64,000 nt of DNA from an uncultured Acidobacteriaceae bacterium (GCA_963757515.1 CAVWRV010000005.1:39870-103869), one strand, 5' to 3'; shown: positions 4,731 to 61,049, numbered from the stretch's first letter. A program made the numbers and translations. The notes: generated by a model not told the origin, from the letters alone.

Positions 4731-5867
4731 TTACCGATACCCGAGCAACCCCTTCTCCAAAGCTGCAGCTTCCGCGTCGGTATCAGTAAACGGGAGCTGT
4801 AGTGCCAGCTTCATCCGCTTCATCACCTTGTCGTCGACCTTCTCAATCTTGTACTCCGCAATGATTGCGGTAAGGATCATCATGTAGAACTCTCCGGCGA
4901 GCTGGAAGTGGCTACCAGCGAGAAGCTCGAACGATGATGCCTTCAAGGTGAAGCCGCTTACACCGGCTGAATGCGAATACCAACTCAGTTGCGGGTAACG
5001 CACCTCATAGATTTCTTCATACGGCATCTTCAACAGAGCGGCCCGCTGTTTCAGGTTCAACCCAGACCAGTGCTCTACCTTCTTCACACCTGGCCAGAGC
5101 TTCGCCTGCTCAGCCGCTACACGGCTTTCGTTGTTCTTGATGAAGTCCTGATGCACGGTCACGTCCGTTTTCGACGTGGGGTTGGCGGCCTTGTACGCCA
5201 CAATCTTCCGCGCTGCACGAATCTTCTCCACGTCAGTGAATGCGCCCACTTTTTCGATGGCATCAGAAACTACGTCTATGAGCTTCATGTCGATAGCCAG
5301 CTCAAACAATGAGCGCGTCACCATAGCGATTGCTTGAAAGTCGCGTACTGTGCGGAGGTTCAACAGGCTTTCCACGTTCATCCTGACTCGCTGATAGATC
5401 GTGGAGACGAGGGTGTCGCGGTTCGTCTTCAACACGATGGTGGACACGACCGGCCCCACGCTCTCTTTATCGAAGACGTTGAGCCCTTTCAGAGAGGTGT
5501 AGTACCGCTCCGTTGCCGTCATCACATCCGGGCCGATCTTCAGTTGCAGCTTACGAAACACACGCATGGCGTCATGCGAGGTGAACTGTCCACGCGGCAT
5601 GCCGGTCACATGCGCGAACGCCTGTTTGATGGGGAACTGCACACCATCCACTTCGACATAAAGCTCACGAATGGATTCCGGCTCTACGTCCTGCAAGCGG
5701 GAGCGAACGTCAGCAGCACCCAGGGAGAACTCGTTTCCGGCTACTGTAAAGGTCATGTTTTTTTCCATCACTATCGCATCACCACCTAATAATATACCAT
5801 CTTTAAGAAAACCTACTATAAAACTGACTTTCGTTCTGTTTACGTCAATCGACTCAAAATGAACCAT
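4731..5867 (-). CDS. hypothetical protein (orphan, low-GC), no recognisable domain
   Basis: 378-aa uninterrupted ORF in a clearly lower-GC stretch (AT-rich 5' end at 5760-5867). Protein-like composition. No motif I can assign. One weak R-x5-H (RGQFTSH). Confidence 0.6.
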   Translation of the reverse strand: MVHFESIDVNRTKVSFIVGFLKDGILLGGDAIVMEKNMTFTVAGNEFSLGAADVRSRLQDVEPESIRELYVEVDGVQFPIKQAFAHVTGMPRGQFTSHDAMRVFRKLQLKIGPDVMTATERYYTSLKGLNVFDKESVGPVVSTIVLKTNRDTLVSTIYQRVRMNVESLLNLRTVRDFQAIAMVTRSLFELAIDMKLIDVVSDAIEKVGAFTDVEKIRAARKIVAYKAANPTSKTDVTVHQDFIKNNESRVAAEQAKLWPGVKKVEHWSGLNLKQRAALLKMPYEEIYEVRYPQLSWYSHSAGVSGFTLKASSFELLAGSHFQLAGEFYMMILTAIIAEYKIEKVDDKVMKRMKLALQLPFTDTDAEAAALEKGLLGYR

Positions 5868-6207
5868 TTATCGGCACGGCAAGCGTACGGGAGACAGTCG
5901 CTAAATCGTATTTTTAAGCCAACGTTTCCTTTTTATCCGTGCTCGCTCTCCTGCATGGGTTGGGAGCAGGCAATCACGGGTGCGGCGGAGGATTACCCCC
6001 TGGACTATTTATTGTGGAAACCTCGGCCCCAATCTTTCCGGTCAAAGCTAGTGACCAAACGACGGTGCCCTTTGAGTCCCTGCGCCGGTATATTCGACTC
6101 ATCCGCGAAGAAGAGGAAATTAAACAAGCACCCAGGAGACTTGGCAGGATCTGGACCGAACCCATATCAGGGGAATACCCAAACGTCAGGGAATCTCGGC
6201 TCTGAAG

Positions 6208-6663: not shown

Positions 6664-7408
6664 TACCTTTTTCCTACATCTTCTGCGTGCGCACTCCTGG
6701 GCCAAATTCGAAACTGAGCCGCATGTACGAGGCCCGCAACACACGTCTAAGCGTGTACGCCAAGCAACGTATCCCTGCCGCCCTGATGACAAGCAACAGA
6801 GCACTACCCTGGTTACCAAAGAAATCTTCTAACCCTCTCGACGAAGCCCAAAAACCGTACTACTGTGAGAGTAGCCACCCCCATCAGCGCCGTCTTACTT
6901 GACGGTCCTGCCTGGCTTTGCACCGGCCCACTCTGCCCCTGCATCCGCCGCCAACAGCCGGGAAAGCATCAGCGCCTGCCGGCATGATGACGGGTGTAGC
7001 AAACGCGAATGTGACATCGAAAGCGACGGATTCACGCCTGTCGGCAGCGTTTCTGTGTCCCGTGGGGGGAGTCTGCGGAGAGCACAAATCACCGTGCCGC
7101 AACCAGGGTACGCTCAGTGCGTCCTCTTGATTAAGCAGTTTTGACAACCTGGAAACCACCATCGGAGGCCGGTGCGGCGCCGGACTACACGGGCGCACAG
7201 ACGAGCAGGCGGGACGTTTGCCAATACGCAGTGTGGGCAGAGAGATCGTCCCGCTTGCCACCGGACTGACTAGGGGAAAGTCGGACCAGCCGCCTGCGGC
7301 AAGGCAACGTTCTGCCGTCCAAGTTTTGGAGTCGAGCGTTCCCCGGTCGGCATATGATCGCCAAAACATCGGTACGGAGCGGCAAGCCCCCACCTCAGAA
7401 GGGGACTT

Positions 7409-7435
7409 ATAGCGCTTATAGCGCTTTTAGCGCAC
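7409..7435. repeat. tandem 9-mer array TATAGCGCT-TATAGCGCT-TTTAGCGCA followed by T-run
   Basis: Read directly: three 9-bp units containing palindromic AGCGCT. Followed by CTTTTCTTTTTT. Related array at 8742-8791. Confidence 0.8.
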
Positions 7436-7560
7436 TTTTCTTTTTTGCCGGGGCTAAAACGTTTGCGTGAGAACCCCGGTTCAGAATGGAGTCTCAGCGG
7501 GACAGGGCGTAGGGTATTACCACGTTCGTAAGAGGGCATCTGTTCCTTCATTTACGAAGG

Positions 7561-7674: not shown

Positions 7675-8744
7675 TCCAGCTCCGGGGACATGGGGACAAA
7701 CAGGGCGACCTGATACCTATTGCGGCATTTCCTCGCGGAGCCAACAAAATTAGGGAGCTAGCAAGGCACGGAGAAGCTCGGGGAACGTCTGAGGCAAGAC
7801 TGACTTTGGAGCTTGCTATCGAGCAGGGTCGGGGCGGATTCGCCATGATCTCCGAGTTCCGGGCAATGCTGGAGCGCTTCGATTCGGAACACGACCGCTC
7901 CCTTCTGGCGCGGATATTACTTCTTCGCTTGCACGTCGAAGTCGGAGACCGGCCAGATCGATATTGCAGGCTCTACAGCAAGATGATCAAAAACGCCCAA
8001 TTATGGGATGCGCATTCTGAGGACAACGTCACTCCCAACACTTTAAAGCGAACATTGTCTATCACTGTTAGTCGTCTAGCTGGCTCTCGGGAGCAACAAT
8101 TCAAATGTCCAGCTTCCGCGGAGTTTGTTTCCTGATTCGCCGCCGGCACCAATTATGGAGGACGACATCCGGTCGCCCGCGAACTCCGCCGCGCCCGCGA
8201 CTGGGCTACCGCGACTCCCGAAATCCTTTTTAGCCGTAATGCCGCTGCCCGCGAGCTCTGGCAGGACCGCTATCCCGCCTTGAGCCAGCTCCGGCCAGGC
8301 CTGCGGGGCGCCGCGACCAGCCGCGCCGAGGCCCATGTCCTGCGTCTCAGCGCCATCTACGCCGCCCTGGACTCCACCTCCGTCATCGGCCTGCCCCATC
8401 TCCAGGCTGCCCTTGCCGTATGGGATTACTGCTACGCCAGCGCCGCCCTCCTCTTCGGCATGTCTACCGGGGACCCGATCGCCGACCGTATCCGCGAAGC
8501 CATCGAGGCCTCCGGCGACGGACTGTCGAAGTATCAGATCAGGCGTCTCTTTCACGGCCACGTCGAGGGCAACCTTATCGACGCTGCCCTCGAAAAACTC
8601 GTGGCCCTGGGCGGCGCAATCCACGCTCGAAGTGAGCCCACCGCAGGTCGACCCTCTACCCGCTGGTCGGTCATCGCAGAGGACGAACACGAAGAAAATG
8701 AGGAATTGGTAGCGGAGGACGAGGCACCGGCAGAAGATCAGTAG
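7647..8744 (+). pseudogene. ORF interrupted by a single in-frame TGA (8133-8135); 5' part low-GC, 3' part high-GC with strong GC3 bias
   Basis: ORFs 7647..8135 and 8280..8744 are in the same frame. Reading continues through the TGA (…AEFVS*FAAGTNYGG…RELWQDRYPALSQLRPG…). Only a TTG start is available after the stop. The 3' part ends …EDEHEENEELVAEDEAPAEDQ. No family assignable. Confidence 0.35.
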
Positions 8745-8791
8745 GGCTTTTAGCGCTTATAGCGCTTATAGCGCTTTTAGCGCATTTTTTT
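8742..8791. repeat. tandem 9-mer array TAGGGCTTT-(TAGCGCTTA)x2-TAGCGCTTT-TAGCGCA followed by T7
   Basis: Read directly. The first TAG is the stop codon of ORF 8280..8744. Same unit as the array at 7409-7435. Confidence 0.8.
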
Positions 8792-8835
8792 AGACGCTCC
8801 GAGAAGCCGGAGCGTCTCCCTTTGCGGTATTTTGG
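8792..8835 (+). terminator. candidate intrinsic terminator
   Basis: Perfect 10-bp stem AGACGCTCCG-agaagc-CGGAGCGTCT (8792-8817) followed by ccctttgcggtatttt. Confidence 0.45.
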
Positions 8836-10488: not shown

Positions 10489-11154
10489 ATGGATGAAGGA
10501 GATACCAGAATGACTACTTTGGATTTGCTCGATCAAATGCAGACGCACCTCGGTGTGCCATGGCAAAGTCAGCGTGCCGGCGGCTACTCTGACGGCGTAT
10601 TGACCGGTGACCCCTACGCTCAAGTGACCGGTATACTAACCTGCTTCACTCCTACGGTCGATGTCCTTCGACACGCAATCAGCTCCGGCCACAACACTGT
10701 GATTTGCAGAGAATCCCCTTTCTACAGCAGAGGAGAAAAACAGCCGATTGCGTACCGGTCGGGAGCAATGACCGCAAAAGAGTTTTTGGAGAGCGATCCC
10801 GTCTACCAGGCAAAATTGGCACTGATCAGCACCAATTCGCTCATTATTGTCAGATTTGTCGATAACTGGGATGCGCGGAAGACCGATGGGCAGCTCGAAG
10901 GCCTGGTAAAGGCGCTGAAGTGGGATGGATATCATCTTTCCGTGAAAGGCGATGTGAAGTTTTATCGCCCGGGTAACAACTTCTTCAGTATCCCTCCGAT
11001 CTCGATGGCGGCCTTGGCTTCGGGCTTGGGGCGTTCCTCCATCGGCGTAAGGCATATGGGGCACTCCGGGTTCGTGGCAGGTCAATCGCAGGACGCTTTG
11101 TGTGTGACACACTACACTAGTGGGGCGCATCAAAAGCCGCGATTCCCCATCTAA
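10489..11154 (+). CDS. hypothetical protein (weak resemblance to the N-terminal half of Nif3/DUF34, but lacking the HH metal ligands)
   Basis: 221-aa ORF. The last ~30 codons are encoded by an R1-family repeat end (11057-11125). Confidence 0.5.
   Translation: MDEGDTRMTTLDLLDQMQTHLGVPWQSQRAGGYSDGVLTGDPYAQVTGILTCFTPTVDVLRHAISSGHNTVICRESPFYSRGEKQPIAYRSGAMTAKEFLESDPVYQAKLALISTNSLIIVRFVDNWDARKTDGQLEGLVKALKWDGYHLSVKGDVKFYRPGNNFFSIPPISMAALASGLGRSSIGVRHMGHSGFVAGQSQDALCVTHYTSGAHQKPRFPI
11057..11125. repeat. R1-family solo end (ccgggttcgtggcaggtcaatcgcaggacgctttgt…cactacactag)
   Basis: Near-identical to the right flank of the R1 copy at 59435-59502 and inverted relative to the left flank at 12888-12905. 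Confidence 0.6.
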
Positions 11155-12841: not shown

Positions 12842-12882
12842 CCAGCTGGAGGGTCACATAACATCGTGATCACGCAAATGCG

Positions 12883-13150
12883 TTAAGAATCTTGACCTGC
12901 CACGAACCCGGGTGCCCCATACCCCCGATTTCCTGTAGAGCTTGTTGGGTTCCGCGGACTTCATGCGCCTTTCGCATATGCAGCCCTTGCCAGCGCCGCG
13001 TGCAGGAAATTCGGGGTATCTCGCTCGTTTTCGCGAGATGTGGGGGGCGAACGTTGGTCGCCCCTTTACAACCTGGACGGATACCAGTCGCAGTGCAGTG
13101 GAATCCCACATCTCGCGAAAACGAGCGAGATCTGGGGCACCCGGGGTTCT
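12883..13150. repeat. R1-family composite palindromic element, module order L-Y-X-R
   Basis: Outer inverted ends …cttgacctgccacgaacccgggtgccccat / …ggggcacccgggg. Module Y is bounded by acccccgatttcctg…caggaaattcggggt. Module X is bounded by atctcgctcgttttcgcgagatgtgggg…cccacatctcgcgaaaacgagcgagat. Compare 59148-59502. Confidence 0.8.
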
Positions 13151-20443: not shown

Positions 20444-20760
20444 TTGAAGGGTACGGGCTTCAGGCCGTACATCCTCACCGAACGTCAATGGGCTTTCCAG
20501 GCTGCGGAAAAACCCAATGTTTTTGAAGGGTACGACCTTTAGGTCGTACGTAAACTATTGCAAACAGGTGCGGCTTTAGCCGCTGAGGGAACAACTCTCG
20601 CCCCTCCAGGACTTTTTCCGCAGCCTGTTTAGCCCCTGAGGTTGCGAACCAGCTAGCTCATCGAAAAAAAGGCTGGCTAGCCCCTGAAGAACACTCCCTC
20701 AGCGGCTAAAGCCGCTCACCGAGGCAAAGTTTGGCAGGGCTGAAGCCCCGCCCCTTCAAA
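20444..20760. repeat. R2-family composite palindromic element (copy 1)
   Basis: Hairpin GTACGACCtttaGGTCGTAC. Interleaved inverted pairs caggctgcggaaaaa/tttttccgcagcctg and gcggctttagccgctgaggg/ccctcagcggctaaagccgc. Repeated tagcccctgagg. Confidence 0.75.
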
Positions 20761-38603: not shown

Positions 38604-38797
38604 GGGGTTCTCAGGCTGCGAAAAAGTCGCTCTCTGGGGAATTGTGGGTGCCCCATATCTCGCGCTTTTTGCGAGATGTGGGAAAGAAACTCAACTAAAA
38701 ACAGAACCCGTCGGTAACCGGCCGCTTTTCCCACATCTCGCAAAAAGCGCGAGATAAGGGGTACCCACAATTCCCCAGAGAGCGACTTTTTCGCAGC
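38604..38797. repeat. R1-related element: ~40-bp terminal inverted repeats enclosing an X-type palindromic module
   Basis: gctgcgaaaaagtcgctctctggggaattgtgggtgcccc (38604-38643) and its inverted partner ggggtacccacaattccccagagagcgactttttcgcagc (38758-38797). Inner module atctcgcgctttttgcgagatgtggg…cccacatctcgcaaaaagcgcgagat. Confidence 0.75.
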
Positions 38798-40721: not shown

Positions 40722-41216
40722 TGCAGTGAAGGGTACGGGCTTTACAGGCTGCGGAAAAACCCAATGTTTTTGAAGGGTACGACCTTTAGGTCGTACGTAA
40801 ACTATTGCAAACAGGTGCGGCTTTAGCCGCTGAGGGAACAACTCTCGCCCTCCAGGACTTTTTCCGCAGCCTGTTCAGCCCGTACATATAAAGGAGGCGA
40901 AAACGATGGGCTTTAGAGTCTGCGTGAGAGCTCTGCACTGAGTCTCGAAGGGGCGGCTGAACTTGGGGCTAAAATTTCAGCCGTCCCTGGCGGGACTAAT
41001 CCAGATTCGTGCCTGCTACCCAGGACTATCGTCCTGGGTTACTTTCAGCCCGTCCCTTCGGGACTCGGTGCAGAGCTCTCACGCAGCTCCTTAGCCCCTG
41101 AGGCAAGCTTTTCGTCTGCGATATGCTGAAAAGCATGCCTCAGCGGCTAAAGCCGATTTCGTTCAAAGCAGTTACGTACGACCTGAAGGCCGTACCCTTT
41201 TTAGCCCCTGAGGGAA
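40722..41216. repeat. R2-family composite palindromic element (copy 2, expanded)
   Basis: Shares the first ~150 bp with 20444-20600. Carries extra nested palindromes (ctgcgtgagagctctgcac…gtgcagagctctcacgcag, ccaggactatcgtcctgg, gtcccttcgggac) and a second cctcagcggctaaagccg copy. Confidence 0.75.
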
Positions 41217-45247: not shown

Positions 45248-45790
45248 TTACGACCTGCCGGGCCGAGAAACCAGAAGACGGCCCCCTGAGGCAAGTGTGA
45301 GCCGGGACGGCGGCGAGATCGCACTCAGATTCAACGCATTTAGATGCGCTGCCTCACGGCCACCCAAGACAACAACTGCTTCGTAATCGCCTGACGGGAC
45401 TTCAGAGAATGCGAAGCTGCCGTCCACAGCAGTGCGCGCCACCAGTTCGCCATGTCCGCCGACCAAGTGTATCTCTGCTGAGCGCAGCGGCCGACCGAAC
45501 GCATCGGTCAGAGCTCCCTTCCATGCACTTGCCTCACCAGCCGGCAATTGCGTCTTCAGGTAAACGGACCGTTCATTTGGATTCTGCGTTGGTATGTAAA
45601 CAATGGGGTTTTGTCCGCCAACAACATTCCTGCTCTCGGGTAATATCGCCGGCGCGTGGACTTTGATGGGTTCGCGGCTGCGGCCGGCCAGGGGGGAGGC
45701 TGTCGTTCGCTCGCTCCCACTGAGGTGGACCCGGAAGCCTCCTCGGGCTCTGATCGGGCAAAGAGTAAGGCGCTCTCTTGAATTGAACAA
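45248..45790 (-). pseudogene. partial duplicate (C-terminal CarboxypepD_reg-like domain only) of gene 51589..52545
   Basis: Nucleotide block 45241-45752 is ~90% identical to 51582-52088. The N-terminal 45 codons are unrelated. Confidence 0.5.
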
Positions 45791-51588: not shown

Positions 51589-52545
51589 TTACGGCAACTT
51601 GCCGGGCCGAGAGACCAGAAGACGGCCGCCAGAGGCAAGTGTGAGCCGGGACGGCGACGAGATCGCACTCAAATGCAGCGCATTTAGATGCGCTACCTCA
51701 CGGCCACCCAAGACAACAACTACTTCGTAATCGCCTGACGGGACTTCAGAGAATGCGAAGCTGCCGTCCCCAGCAGTGCGCGCCACCAGTTCGCCATGTC
51801 CGCCGATCAAGTGTATCTCTGCTGAGCGCACCGGCCGGCCGGACGCATCGGTCAGAGCTCCCCTCCATGCACTTGCCTCACCAGCCGGCAATTGCGTCAG
51901 GTACACGGCCCGTTCATTTGGATTCTGCGTTGGTATGGAGACAATGTGGTTTTGTCCGCCGACAACATTCCTGCTCTCGGGTGATATCGCCGGCGCGTGT
52001 GACTTTGATGGGTTCGCGGCTGCGGCCGGCCAGGGCCGAGGCTGTCGTTCGCTCGCTCCCACTGAGGTGGACCCGGAAGCCTCCTCAGACCCGCTCATGG
52101 GTGTATCTGGGGTCGTCGCTCGATTGAGTCGTTCCACCACCGCTTCAATCGGAGACATCCGTCCATTCGAACCCGGGACGGGCAGGTGAGCGATCGACCG
52201 GCTCAGCAAAAATCCAAAGGCAACGATTGTGGCCAGCGACAGCGTGCCGCCGAGGAGAATCGATCCACGCCCTATCGGTTCCTCGTCCAGAACCTTGAAG
52301 CAGGGAATACCCTCGGCATTGGGTGAAAGCGACGCTGCTTCTGTCGCCGCATAGGAGTTCCGGTAAGCCTGCGGGAGTCCGACTAAAACGTCCGCCACCA
52401 GGTCCCACAAGAGGCGGGCCCTTTTGAAAAAACCTGTCTCGTCGCGGAGACGGTCCCGAATCAATTGGAGCGCCTCACCCTCGTATTCCTTACGGAACCT
52501 CGAAGGATACAGACGAAACAGGCGAGTGTACATCTTCTCAGACAT
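51589..52545 (-). CDS. PadR-associated membrane-anchored protein with C-terminal carboxypeptidase-regulatory-like domain
   Basis: 318 aa. Central TM (ILLGGTLSLATIVAFGFLL). C-terminal AEIHLIGGHGELVARTAGDGSFAFSEVPSGDYEVVV. 8-nt overlap with the PadR gene. Confidence 0.7.
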   Translation of the reverse strand: MSEKMYTRLFRLYPSRFRKEYEGEALQLIRDRLRDETGFFKRARLLWDLVADVLVGLPQAYRNSYAATEAASLSPNAEGIPCFKVLDEEPIGRGSILLGGTLSLATIVAFGFLLSRSIAHLPVPGSNGRMSPIEAVVERLNRATTPDTPMSGSEEASGSTSVGASERQPRPWPAAAANPSKSHAPAISPESRNVVGGQNHIVSIPTQNPNERAVYLTQLPAGEASAWRGALTDASGRPVRSAEIHLIGGHGELVARTAGDGSFAFSEVPSGDYEVVVVLGGREVAHLNALHLSAISSPSRLTLASGGRLLVSRPGKLP

Positions 52546-57395: not shown

Positions 57396-59085
57396 TTAGA
57401 AGAAAGTGGAGATGTCGCGAAACACTTCTACGATATTGGTCGGTGTTCCATCGTAGGCTTTGCCCTGGGTGGAGTCGGCGATCTGCTGCAGTACATCCCG
57501 CCGGGCGTCATGCCCGTAGGCGATGGTAAAGATGCGAATAGTATGGGTCTCGGCGTCAGGGTGAATCTTTGCCAGCAGCTGATCAAGGGTTTCCGTACTC
57601 TTGTTATCCTCCCCGTCGGTGAGCACCACGAGGGCGCGGATATGATCGCCAGGCTGCTGCAGCAAATGCGCATAGCCTTGATCTACGGCGTCGTAAAGAG
57701 CAGTCTGGCCGGCGGGAAAGACGGAGTCGATCGCGGTATCGGAGACCTGGCGTCCCTGGGCCGCAGGCTGATCCTGGCTGGCCCAGGCCGCGGTGGTGTT
57801 GAACGGTAGCAGGGAGAAATCGTCCTTGTCGCTGAGCAGCGAAACCAGCTGTTTCGCCCCCGCCTTGGCTGCAGACATTTTGTCCTCTTCCCGCATGCTG
57901 CCGGAGGTGTCGAGCACCAGCACAATGTCTGCTGCCTTCTTCTCGTCGTTGTCCCATTGCTGCTGCAGGGCCGCGATCACCTCGGAAGACGGCACCTCCA
58001 GGGTGGTGGTGGGTTGCTTGGGATCAACCCCGTGCGCGGCATCGATCGGCGGCCCGACGGCAACATCGGGTGAGCCGGGACGAAAGCCGTAGGTCATTGC
58101 CTTCTCCTGCTGCGGACGGCCGAGCAGGTAGCGAATGTAAATCTGCGCCGCTTCCTGCCTTTCCGGGGTCACCCAGGGGCGATTCACAATGCCGACCGGA
58201 TGATCGCTCCAGAACGTGCCTTCGCGAGGATAAATCGCCACCACCGGGAACGGCATGGAGCTGACTTTGGCATACGACTCGACCACCATGCTCTCGTACA
58301 ATACCGCAGCGGATAAATATTCCGGGCCGCTGTCGAATAGTTTTCGGCCAAAGAAGCCGGTAGAACTGCCATAGTGCACAACGGAATTCTCGATGCCGCT
58401 GACAAAAGCGCGCGTCTTGGGATTTTGCACATCGGCGAGCGTGAGCCCGCGTACTTTTCCGGTGGCGGCATAGTTCTCGGCGATGAGGGAAATGATGCCG
58501 CTGTTGCTGTACGCCGGGTGGGTGTGGCCGAACTTGAAGCTGCCCCATTGGGGAAATCCATAGGTGCTCCAGCCTTTCTTGTCTCGTGCCAGGGACAGGA
58601 TGTCCGCCCAGCCGATGGGCTTCTTTCCCCAGCCGATGGCTTCGGCCATCGGCTTCCACATAGCAATCACGACCGGCGAAAGCAGCAGGTTTTGCGTGGC
58701 GCCAATCAAATCCTGGCCCGTGGCGGCGCGAGATTTTGCGTTCCCGAGCTTGATGAACACATTCGAAGCCGGGCTGGTGAGATCGTCCTGTTCCGCGCCG
58801 CTCAGTACATCATCGATGCATTCGCCAGACCCCTTTGGGATGGCTTTCACCAGGATTCGTCTTGCCGCCGGCCGTCCGTGCGCCGCTTTGATTGAAAGCG
58901 GCGGTTACGTCGTCAATCCACTTCTGCTTTTCGGAGCCGTAGGAGAAGAGCAGCTGAATCTCATCTTTTGAAGTTTGTTGCTGGGGGCCGCTTTGGCGGG
59001 CGGTCTCCGTCTTCGACCGGCAGCCAAGCTGGAGCGGGAGTAAGGCGGTAAGGAGGAGCAGCACAGAAACCTTACGACTTGTCAT
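57396..59085 (-). CDS. lipoprotein with PBP2-like (PhnD/SsuA-like binding fold) domain fused to a C-terminal von Willebrand factor A domain; one apparent 1-nt frameshift near 58865
   Basis: Lipobox LQLGC. PBP2-like region (…SYGSEKQKW…, …FKFGHTHPAYSNSG…). VWA MIDAS motif VLVLDTSGSM and …LTDGEDN…. Confidence 0.65.
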
Positions 59086-59147
59086 CTATTTCCCCGCTTC
59101 CAAGGATACTCGATGTGGCGGATCTAGCCTGGATCGCGCAATGGCGC

Positions 59148-59502
59148 TAAGAATCTTGACCTACTACGAACCCGGGGTGCCCCATATCTCGCTCGTTTTT
59201 GGCGAGATGTGGGGGGCGACCGTTGGTCGCCCCTTTACCACCTGGACGGATACCAGTCGCAGTGCAGTGGAATCCCACATCTCGCGAAAAACGAGCGAGA
59301 TACCCCGAATTTCCTGCACGCAGCACCGGACAAGACCACTTGTGCGCCTTTCTTTAAGGAAAGGCGCATGAAGTTTGCGGAACCCACTAAGCTCCTCCGG
59401 AAATCGGGGATATGGGGCACCCGGGTTCGTGGCAGGTTAATCGCAGGACGCTTTGTTACATCGCGGGATAAACGTGCATCTGTGTGACGCACTACACTAG
59501 CA
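59148..59502. repeat. R1-family composite palindromic element, module order L-X-Y(inverted)-R plus shared right tail
   Basis: Same L end, X module and outer R end as 12883-13150. The Y module is present as the reverse complement and on the other side of X. The right tail ggttcgtggcaggttaatcgcaggacgctttgt…cactacactag also occurs at 11057-11125. Confidence 0.8.
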
Positions 59503-59642
59503 CCGACTTCGGAGCCGCATGGAGTCGCGTGGGCGGGACGAGACGCGGGATCCCTCAGGCGCCAGCGGCCACTGGCCAGTAGACAATCGATTGATTATGA
59601 TGGCTGATCGAAAAGTTTGCCGGATGGAACGAGGAAATTCTC

Positions 59643-61049
59643 ATGAAAATGCATGTCGCCTGGCTTTTATTGTGTGCACTCCTAATCACATCTCACCGTG
59701 CATCAACCGCGCAGGAGGCGCCTGATGCCAGGCTGTGGTTGACGACTGCGGATCGCTCCGCGCTGCTCGCCGCGCAGAAGGACCCATTGCGCTTTTCTTC
59801 ACCCGCGAACGGGCTTCCGAACATCGACGTAAATGACATGCAGCAGTTCCAATCCATAGATGGCTTTGGTTTTGCTCTGACCGGAGGCAGCGCGCAGCTT
59901 CTCATGCGCATGGAGCCCGGCGCGAGGGCAGACCTGCTCAAGGAGCTCTTCGCAACCCAGGCCAACGACGTCGGGGTTAGCTACCTCAGGGTAACCATTG
60001 GGTCTTCCGACATGAATGAACGCGTGTATTCGTACGATGATTTGCCACCGGGTGAGACCGATGTGAATCTTGCCCGCTTCAGTCTGGGTCCTGACCGCGC
60101 TGACGTCATTCCGGTACTCAAGCAGATTCTGGGGATCAATCCCGCAATCAAAATCCTCGCCTCGCCATGGTCTGCCCCAGCGTGGATGAAGACGAACGAT
60201 CGGGCGAAAGGCGGCCACCTGAAGCCTGAGTACTACGGGCCGTACGCCGCCTACTTTGTGAAGTACATCGAGCAGATGAAGGCCGAGGGCATCTCCATCG
60301 CAGCCATCACGGTACAGAACGAGCCATTGAACCCCAAGAACACGCCCAGCATGGTGATGTTCGCTGAGGAAGAAGGCACGTTTATCGCCAAGTATCTGGA
60401 ACCGGCTTTTCGCAATGTGGGAACGACCACCAGGATACTCTTGTACGACCACAATCCGGACGTGCTTTCCTACCCTCTGTCGATCCTCGAGGACCCGGCT
60501 GCCGGCAAGTATGTCGATGGAACTGCTTTTCACTTATACGGCGGTGTGCCCTCCGCACTGACAGAAGTGCATAATGCGTACCCAAACAAGAATCTATACA
60601 TGACCGAGCAGGCGATCACCGGCCCTGAGGAGGAACCGCTTCCGATCGCCGCGGCTGTCAGCGGAGTGTTGATTGCCGCCACGCGGAACTGGAGCCGCAA
60701 CGTACTGCTCTGGAATCTCGCCGCCGACCCAAAGAATGGTCCCCACACCAACGACGGAGGATGCACAGGCTGCCAGGGCGCCGTCACTCTGGACGGCAAC
60801 CGCATTTCTCGTAATGTGGCGTACTATGCAGTCGCACACTTTTCCAGGTTTGTGCCACCGGGATCCGTACGCGTGGGGTCCAGTGAGCAGGAGCAGCTTG
60901 CATCGGCCGCGTTTCTCACCCCCGACGGCAAGATCGTGCTGGTGGCATCGAACACGGCCAACTTTCCCAAGAGCTTTAACGTGAAGTATCACGGCGTGTG
61001 GTTCACAACCATGCTGCCTGAGGAATCGGTGGGAACCTATGTGTGGTAG
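59643..61049 (+). CDS. glycoside hydrolase family 30 (glucosylceramidase/beta-1,6-glucanase/xylanase-like)
   Basis: Signal peptide. GH30 features …RVTIGSSDM…, …LASPWSAPAWMKTN…, catalytic-acid-region NEP. Confidence 0.9.
   Translation: MKMHVAWLLLCALLITSHRASTAQEAPDARLWLTTADRSALLAAQKDPLRFSSPANGLPNIDVNDMQQFQSIDGFGFALTGGSAQLLMRMEPGARADLLKELFATQANDVGVSYLRVTIGSSDMNERVYSYDDLPPGETDVNLARFSLGPDRADVIPVLKQILGINPAIKILASPWSAPAWMKTNDRAKGGHLKPEYYGPYAAYFVKYIEQMKAEGISIAAITVQNEPLNPKNTPSMVMFAEEEGTFIAKYLEPAFRNVGTTTRILLYDHNPDVLSYPLSILEDPAAGKYVDGTAFHLYGGVPSALTEVHNAYPNKNLYMTEQAITGPEEEPLPIAAAVSGVLIAATRNWSRNVLLWNLAADPKNGPHTNDGGCTGCQGAVTLDGNRISRNVAYYAVAHFSRFVPPGSVRVGSSEQEQLASAAFLTPDGKIVLVASNTANFPKSFNVKYHGVWFTTMLPEESVGTYVW

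Follow-up and report, generated by a model that had tools for sequence, protein, structure and literature searches.

The window analysed here is a stretch of 64,000 nucleotides from an uncultured Acidobacteriaceae bacterium (GCA_963757515.1 CAVWRV010000005.1:39870-103869), in which two loci carry copies of a composite palindromic repeat, herein the R1 family. Copy 1 has as its neighbours an HI0933-like flavoprotein gene and a convergent open reading frame (ORF) of no known function, and copy 2 lies between divergent genes for a VWA/SBP protein and a GH30 protein; with two further members described below, the family is represented four times in the window, always between genes. An earlier note on this DNA had divided the repeat into outer ends (L and R) and two internal modules (X and Y), in the order L-Y-X-R in copy 1 and L-X-Y'-R, with Y inverted, in copy 2, and this order is borne out both by the sequence and by a repeat finder.

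On the plus strand, copy 1 begins at 12868-12919 with a left outer arm (12868-12909, with a 5' extension ...TTGACCTGCCACGAACCC) and a foot, GGGTGCCCCA (12910-12919). Module Y follows at 12923-13016, with TAC (12920-12922) and TAT (13017-13019) on either side (12920-13019, plus strand); it resembles a miniature inverted-repeat transposable element (MITE), with terminal inverted repeats (TIRs) CCCCGATTTCCTG and CAGGAAATTCGGGG, and alignment with the Y-bearing arms of six other genomes reveals a 13-nt deletion that has removed half of its central hairpin. Module X is a 114-nt palindromic element (13018-13131) whose 27-nt arms complement each other in full (100%). It consists of a left hairpin unit of the form ATCTCGC-loop-GCGAGATGTGGG (13018-13044, plus strand; 100% complementary to 13105-13131), a spacer or core with a small hairpin, GGGGCGAACGTTGGTCGCCCC (13045-13104, plus strand; 97% identical to copy 2), and a right hairpin unit (13105-13131). 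A foot with one change, CTGGGGCACCC (13132-13142), and a decayed outer arm complete the right-hand segment (13105-13150, plus strand).

Copy 2 has the same components in a different arrangement. Its left outer arm (59132-59174) and foot (59175-59184; together 59132-59184, plus strand) lead directly into the doublet proper (59185-59302, plus strand), composed of a left unit (59185-59213), a core (59214-59273) and a right unit (59274-59302), with 29-nt X arms that are 97% complementary. Y is here 107 nt long (59303-59409) and is the reverse complement of that in copy 1 (59300-59412, minus strand); it is bounded by a perfect 3-bp direct repeat, ATA (59300-59302 and 59410-59412), and deletion of Y together with one ATA regenerates the canonical GCGAGATATGGGGCAC. 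The remainder (59413-59500, plus strand) comprises the right foot, TGGGGCACCC (59413-59422), a right outer arm that runs to 59440 and, beyond it, an extension with GTGTGACGCACTACACTAG as its end.

The outer ends had been reported as common to both copies, which is true of the left ends (87% identity over 45 nt between copy 1 and 59132-59176 in a repeat search of the whole window) and not of the right, where that of copy 1 is degenerate. Likewise, of the extent previously given to copy 2 (59148-59502), similarity does reach 59500, albeit past the element itself and in sequence that is also found in the third member of the family (11054-11125). The X cores of the two copies are 97% identical over 94 nt, whereas their Y modules, compared in inverted orientation, are 81-89% identical, so that the Y copies differ from one another 4-6 times as much as the X cores do. 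Chance is excluded as the origin of these motifs, as the X-arm motif occurs 6 times in the window (0.17 expected from shuffled sequence) and the outer-arm motif 4 times (0.00 expected). Fold prediction, a check that had been proposed alongside the modular description, found both loci to fold as single strands far better than shuffled sequences (z = -11.2 for copy 1 and z = -13.8 for copy 2).

The modules are also found well beyond the window. In a search of species-representative genomes, the X-arm pattern matched at least 112 stretches, and the 80 listed stretches come from approximately 32 metagenome-assembled genomes (MAGs) labelled Acidobacteriaceae or Sulfotelmatobacter, with the exception of two contigs of one Acetobacteraceae-labelled MAG; one MAG, CAWCCT01, carries the pattern at at least 11 loci (10 stretches). 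Relatives in many MAGs, and two window loci that differ in flanks, arrangement and bases, accord with the expectation of the earlier note that the modules are dispersed and that the loci are not an assembly duplicate. We fetched 1.6 Mb of related DNA, the loci of which are cited below by L number, and it is on this sample that the counts of feet and the searches for empty sites and for autonomous relatives of Y are based. The core of copies 1 and 2 has no match in any fetched locus; matches in other genomes are confined to the arms and to Y.

From these matches we extracted 43 foot-to-foot elements, mostly 130-150 nt in length, that share a common architecture. The canonical doublet reads GGGTGCCCCAYATCTCGCTCGTTTTTCGCGAGATGTGGGATACCAC, approximately 50 variable nucleotides, and then GTGGTATCCCACATCTCGCGAAAAACGAGCGAGATRTGGGGCACCC; every arm is itself hairpin-forming, and single arms and compact one-hairpin forms also occur. 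Each unit comprises the foot GGGTGCCCCA, a stem CCCAYATCTCGC/GCGAGATGTGGG and an outer extension of approximately 20 nt, and two inverted units enclose a variable spacer, which gives doublets of 180-200 nt, or 300 nt where Y is present. GGGTGCC stands directly before a hairpin in 216 of its 503 occurrences in the fetched DNA. Among the 107 distinct units in all fetched DNA, which have the foot GGGTGC and a CCCA...TGGG stem, the hairpin is kept via paired changes (CG, TA, GC or AT at stem position 5 and AT, GC, TA or CG at stem position 6).

Outside the foot, the sequence again forms inverted repeats that vary by locus yet fall into recognisable types, and inspection of the 43 elements indicates that particular types of outer arm go with particular types of core. 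Beyond the foot, the two arms of one element also complement each other better than do arms of different elements (0.66 versus 0.54, p = 1.5e-11). Because the outer L and R sequences co-vary with the core as subfamilies, and because their complementarity is greater within than between elements, we read L, X and R as parts of one element that exists in subfamilies, with no separate target.

The identity of this element becomes clearer from the genes with which its units are associated. We took the protein sequences of the Acidobacterial 'TIRYT' transposases from the supplement of PMC3733652 and compared them by tblastn with all fetched DNA. A search of the ORFs of the fetched loci with HUH/Y motif patterns had given no match, the patterns being too strict; tblastn then found L012, with a truncated aca645-like gene and a foot-type unit 45 nt upstream of it, and L076, with an aba1552-like gene. 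When aca645 served as the query of a database search, the homologues numbered in the thousands (aca645 itself being P0001, with 100% identity), and four representatives exceed the NCBIfam equivalog cut-off for the REP-associated tyrosine transposase (RAYT; NF047646) with 92-100 bits against a required 80, REP denoting the repetitive extragenic palindromic sequence. The sole match of these homologues in the PDB is the Escherichia coli TnpA-REP protein (4ER8).

We read six full-length loci that encode such proteins (L113, which is aca645 of A. capsulatum, L115, L116, L244, L245 and L246). At all six, GGGTGCCCCA is followed directly by a hairpin, which lies 10-80 nt before the start codon in five of them; at L116, the foot-plus-hairpin unit overlaps the annotated start. 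The stems beside the RAYT genes are CCCACATCTC, CCCACGTCTCG, CCCAGGTCTCG, CCCGGGTCTCG and CCCATGTCTCG, each with its complement, and in A. capsulatum three to four tandem units stand upstream of the gene. In L244, L245 and L246, the 3' end of the gene is met or covered by an inverted hairpin unit with the end TGGGGCACC (TGGGGCACCC in L244 and L246), and at L116 an inverted foot without an evident hairpin is found in this position, such that an inverted unit or foot is present at three to four of the six loci. One unit of L245, GGGTGCCCCACATCTCGCGTTTGAGATGTGGGATAC, agrees with the window arm in foot, stem and tail. At the level of predicted genes and repeats, the transposase-unit association of a REPtron or TIRtron arrangement is hence shown to hold in related genomes. 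Within 3.5 kb of L246 (1-3415) there are three RAYT-type genes, each with its own foot-plus-hairpin units.

Module Y has a separate distribution. It measures 105-108 nt and has TIRs of 13-15 nt (CCCGGATTTCCTG / CAGGAAATCCGGG), a central hairpin (GCGCCTTTC...GAAAGGCGC) and no coding capacity, and solo copies occur away from X in the genome loci. A metagenome scan anchored on the central hairpin of Y, separate from the X-arm scan, returned at least 120 stretches, from which 101 copies with both ends and flanks were taken; 99 of these are 105-109 nt long. Their hosts are a repeat that we call V (31 copies), other foot-type units (32), X arms (10) and other sites (28). At 29 of the 101 copies, the two flanks repeat 3 nt exactly, against 1.6 expected, a count in which TAC accounts for 23 of the 29 and behind which there are few independent events. 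Uninterrupted paralogous hosts exist, such as the V repeat without insertion in L005, and one TAC site in a further host, the 'W' unit, carries Y in both orientations. V itself (...CAGATCCCTCCACTGCGCTACGCTCCGGTCGGGATGACAAAGG...), the commonest host of Y in the metagenome sample, is an abundant Acidobacterial repeat, seen at L005 5640-5720, at L089 1560-2025 and in metagenome loci such as L118, L134 and L144.

Filled and empty versions of the same site were obtained from a scan of viral contigs (IMG/VR), which returned 7 contigs, four of them mutually related. There are three such orthologous pairs (L241/L238 twice and L240/L241), with insertions of 106-111 nt (gap sizes) and in each case an imperfect flanking 3-bp repeat (TAC/TAT, TAC/TAT and CAC/TAT). 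In an X arm, empty CCCCA-TAT-CTCGC corresponds to filled CCCCA-TAC-[Y]-TAT-CTCGC; at a second X-arm site, empty CCCC-TTAT-CTCGC in L238 corresponds to filled CCCCA-CAC-[Y]-TAT-CTCGC in L241; and in the third pair, empty CACG-TAC-GCTG corresponds to filled CACG-TAC-[Y]-TAT-GCTG. The TAC...TAT of copy 1 is the same imperfect pair as in other genomes, and the Y-bearing arms of copy 1, of reverse-complemented copy 2 and of the six other genomes are collinear throughout. The earlier note had placed all module junctions at an AT dinucleotide, for which a 3-bp YAT duplication is the better description; its suggestion that Y is MITE-like is upheld by the solo copies, the 101-copy sample and the three filled/empty pairs. 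Judged by these sequences, Y is an independent MITE-like element with a 3-bp target duplication and a preference for palindromic repeats. The four related contigs (L238-L241), catalogued as 'viral', are 82-96% identical over kilobases and carry X-type, W-type and Y elements, and Y, as well as a single hairpin unit, is cleanly present in some of them and missing from others.

In the account that we consider probable, R1 is a REP/REPIN-type family specific to the Acidobacteriaceae lineage, with a MITE nested in it and with doublets that are gene-less derivatives of TIRtrons. Its basic unit spans approximately 70 nt, with a variable 5' extension of approximately 20 nt, the foot GGGTGC, the CCCA...TGGG hairpin (CCCAYATCTCGC-N8-GCGAGATGTGGG) and a short inner tail, and two inverted units around a poorly conserved 40-60-nt spacer form the long palindrome that had earlier been split into L, X and R. 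We propose that a doublet, which is REPIN-like, arose when the gene of a TIRtron, bracketed by such units, was swapped for a short spacer, and that a Y1/HUH enzyme of the RAYT class, acting on hairpins in single-stranded DNA, presumably copies the doublets or moves them in trans. Y enters palindromic repeats by preference, including the foot/hairpin junction CCCCA|YAT|CTCGC. As the doublet is two-fold symmetric, this junction occurs once per arm on opposite strands, and the placement of Y, in the left arm for copy 1 and in the right arm for copy 2, is by itself enough to produce the order that appeared permuted and inverted. Because divergence between the two Y copies far exceeds that between the X cores, a separate acquisition of Y, or an exchange of arms with other copies, is more likely than inversion. 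So understood, R1 is an essentially ordinary kind of bacterial junk-like repeat.

Several observations weigh against this interpretation. No RAYT gene was detected by tblastn in the 64-kb window, and a cognate transposase in the source organism is thus assumed; mobilisation of the doublets by a RAYT is something we infer for this family. The GTAG (GT[AG]G) tag of classical REPs is absent, the conserved end being GGGTGC followed by CCCA, and GTGG is found in the units solely as part of the stem or tail, for which reason we assign the family to the 'TIR' repeats and not to the GTAG REPs, as distinguished in the text of PMC3733652. At L115, the units around the gene are in direct rather than inverted orientation, and the tandem genes of L246 are more IS-like (that is, like an insertion sequence) than the single-copy, domesticated RAYT. 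Where whole doublets were compared at orthologous sites, at 77-92% flank identity, neither clean ends nor target duplications were seen, and the differences are fuzzy indels. With regard to Y, all of the copies in X arms share one polarity (10 of the 10 scored and, by reading, every genome-locus copy) and their duplication is usually imperfect (YAC...YAT), and hence many composite arms may go back to a single old insertion instead of to repeated targeting. The 1.6 Mb contained no two Y ends at a spacing of 0.6-4 kb, as expected of an autonomous element, in a sample far too small to exclude one.

Of the other readings, the earlier note favoured MITE-like elements or invertible segments. In a classical nested-MITE scheme, L and R form a palindromic element or target (...GTGCCCCAT|ATGGGGCAC...) and X and Y are unrelated DDE-type MITEs that each inserted at its central AT. 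Y does behave as a DDE-type MITE, in one metagenome locus (L224) the centre of a foot-to-foot palindrome is occupied by Y without any X, and the solo right end at 11054 in the window begins at the ATAT junction; however, X has no target duplication and the outer arms co-vary with the core types. Moreover, the foot beside RAYT genes is always followed by a hairpin, which makes it part of the unit and not of a target, and an empty GTGCCCCA-(0-45 nt)-TGGGGCAC was not found in the 1.6 Mb beyond compact single-hairpin forms (L023, L087 and L157). The single palindromic target (...gtgccccAT|ATggggcac...) that X and Y had been thought to enter is accordingly given up: its empty form, GTGCCCCATATGGGGCAC, was absent from the same 1.6 Mb of related sequence, and we regard nested MITEs throughout as an unlikely account. 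It is highly improbable that the two loci are alternative states of an invertible or shuffling segment, in which X and Y are flipped by recombination between inverted arms. In principle, a sequence enclosed by long inverted repeats can be inverted, and L055 and L063 have different inner modules inside the same outer repeat, but neither the X core nor the asymmetric left flank changes orientation between the copies, and one inversion cannot therefore convert one copy into the other. Further evidence against inversion is provided by the divergence of the two Y copies (81-89% identity, against 97% for the X cores), by the same composite arm being fixed in many genomes, six of which have Y-bearing arms collinear with those of the window, and by the lack of an identifiable recombinase domain in the flanking genes, two ORFs of which have no Pfam match.

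Structured small RNAs, or cis-acting RNA elements such as stabilisers, terminators or processing sites, would account for the very stable predicted folds and the compensatory stem changes, and T stands opposite G at stem position 5 in 35 of the 107 units and the reverse in none. REPs of other bacteria do act on mRNA, as described in the text of PMC3733652. The T:G pairs are, however, accounted for by perfect long-range pairing of the two arms, the symmetry of the element leaves no preferred strand, elements occupy all gene-orientation contexts (convergent, divergent and co-directional alike), and the association with transposase genes accounts for the conservation without an RNA role. Neither locus matched Rfam 15 at the gathering score, and a permissive threshold yielded chance-level matches (E 0.9-9); nor did a promoter and terminator scan of 58900-59700 find anything above the shuffle background to account for the element, or a convincing terminator or promoter. 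We accordingly hold an RNA function to be improbable. An assembly or duplication artefact, for which only the similarity of the two loci speaks, is refuted by their differing flanking genes and module order and their many substitutions, by the two more diverged members in the window and by hundreds of relatives in independent assemblies, and its probability is negligible.

Within our preferred interpretation of R1 as a REPIN-type repeat with a nested MITE, a more radical possibility, to which we give little credence, is that the junction CCCCA|YAT|CTCGC is a RAYT-type cleavage site and serves as a cassette-exchange point at which palindromic modules (Y, alternative cores and other REP types) would be excised and inserted on single-stranded DNA. 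The hints are that the third member of the window begins at this junction, that Y enters exactly there, and that modules differ between L055 and L063 and between L078 and L177. The first of these pairs (L055 4440-4730 and L063 2470-2735, flanks 95-97% identical) shares an outer inverted repeat around different inner palindromic modules; the second (L078 990-1320 and L177 5045-5475, flanks 86-90% identical) has an X doublet and a W doublet with Y, respectively, at the same intergenic site. L063 also has an X doublet between Y-type terminal repeats. If true, cassette exchange would amount to a natural 'palindrome-in-palindrome' shuffling run by a domesticated HUH transposase, instead of a passive pile-up of insertions.

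Insertions that target REPs or other palindromes have precedents in IS1397 and ISKpn1, which enter the loops of BIMEs, and in ERIC elements with internal insertions. These resemble the R1 composites in that a small element lies at a fixed position in a palindromic repeat, with a 3-bp duplication, and in that the composites are multi-copy. Unlike these cases, Y enters the stem/foot junction or TAC/TTC sites of several unrelated repeats rather than loops only, and no autonomous parent of Y was found in the 1.6 Mb.

The closest general parallel is to the REPINs and RAYTs of Pseudomonas fluorescens SBW25 and to the REP/BIME and TnpA-REP system of E. coli (PMC3116915, PMC3337134; 4ER8). Shared features are short hairpins with a conserved foot, two inverted units around a less conserved spacer that form a long hairpin, an apparently extragenic and multi-copy distribution (four intergenic members in the 64-kb window), persistence at orthologous positions, and units that flank a Y1/HUH transposase scoring as a REP-associated tyrosine transposase. 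The R1 family differs in its foot (GGGTGC(CCCA) rather than GTAG/GTGG), in its longer units, which measure approximately 70 nt if the outer extension is counted, in doublets of 180-200 nt that reach 300 nt when Y is present, and in that at least one locus has three tandem RAYT genes (L246), unlike the single-copy habit described.

Within Acidobacteria, Di Nocera, De Gregorio and Rocco (2013) described RAYT-like 'TIRYT' genes with long inverted repeats as 'TIRtrons' (tsa392, aca645, gma794 and aba3477; PMC3733652, text). The transposases belong to the same group as those considered here, and the gene is bracketed by long TIRs and not by GTAG REPs; the repeats of aca645-type genes are, in relatives, also dispersed in the genome, as the X-arm stretches and the 43 elements demonstrate. 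The text of that paper calls the TIR families 'moderately abundant' and, for Koribacter, reports repeated TIRs of aba1552 only. An abundant doublet family, hairpin variants and a nested Y do not appear in it (the comparison covered the text). In Solibacter usitatus, a class 3 TnpA-Y1 transposase is flanked by atypical hairpins in approximately 600 copies, a system that its authors place midway from IS to REPtron (Quentin et al. 2018; PMC6006769). It resembles the present case in pairing an Acidobacterial Y1 transposase with unusual, highly repeated hairpins, and differs in its foot (CnGA) and protein signature (Y----Q), the comparison with the aca645 group being by description. Across the texts compared, which include PMC3733652 in its running text, the abundance of the doublets, their co-varying hairpin variants and a MITE at the foot/hairpin junction are not described, and these are extensions of known kinds.

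Hairpins of another type are also present in these genomes. The only Rfam hit in the window is Acido-Lenti-1, which points to Acidobacteria. Clusters of REP-like hairpins (GGTACGACCTTTAGGTCGTACG, GCGGCTTTAGCCGC, CCCAGGACTATCGTCCTGGG and CAGCCGTCCC..GGGAC) occur at 40726-41213 (Rfam hit at 41019-41065) and 20444-20715 in the window and at 5235-5280, 5492-5879 and 6205-6250 in L076, and the candidate small RNA (sRNA) Acido-Lenti-1 matches two of the hairpins of these clusters. In L076, two strong Acido-Lenti-1 hits (53 bits) in inverted orientation bracket the aba1552-like Y1 transposase gene, and Acido-Lenti-1 hence looks less like an sRNA gene than like the REP that goes with a second RAYT system in the same genomes.

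The third window member is a solo right end (11054-11125, plus strand) consisting of foot, outer arm and extension, 97% identical to 59421-59456 and located upstream of msrA. It begins at the ATAT junction itself (ATATGGGGCAC...) and lacks the hairpin unit, the core and the left half. This start is the same point at which Y is inserted in the other copies, and it could be a preferred breakpoint or a cleavage site. An ORF at 10489-11154, without a Pfam match, crosses this member and may be a spurious extension. The fourth member (38615-38797, plus strand), which follows a gene for a PD40 propeller protein, is a doublet that keeps the foot and the hairpin stem, with GCTTTTT/AAAAAGC as its loops and 71-nt arms that are 97% complementary; it has a 41-nt spacer and differing 30-nt outer arms (CTGCGAAAAAGTCGCTCTCTGGGGAATTGT), and as a single strand it, too, folds far better than shuffled sequences (z = -20.8).

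A motif, GTGTGACRCACTACACTAG, recurs 40-85 nt beyond the right foot of some elements, at 11102-11120 and 59482-59500 in the window and, elsewhere, at L012 1912 (inverted at approximately 1624), L079 1094, and L086 3061 and 3596. The two window copies lie 50-140 nt upstream of the starts of plus-strand genes (msrA and GH30), and the motif could belong to a longer subfamily as its outermost layer, or else be a promoter or operator that the element brings with it. Repeats of other kinds in the window are two arrays of 9-nt units (CTTATAGCG / CTTTTAGCG) at 7397-7448 and 8738-8798, 1.3 kb apart, and a direct repeat of approximately 490 nt (45253-45744 and 51597-52086), the copies of which are 93-98% identical and 6.3 kb apart.

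Current views of bacterial repeats are not overturned by these findings. They provide a sequence-level account of an abundant REPIN-like family in the Acidobacteriaceae, a dominant yet poorly studied group of soil bacteria, and tie this family to a RAYT/TIRYT clade that was formerly described through a few gene-flanking repeats. In practical terms, the elements break assemblies of Acidobacterial MAGs, extend ORFs spuriously and give rise to false 'sRNA' calls. The natural hairpin variants, with their matching transposase loci, are useful for the study of substrate recognition by RAYTs, in a system that includes a MITE homing to palindromic repeats.

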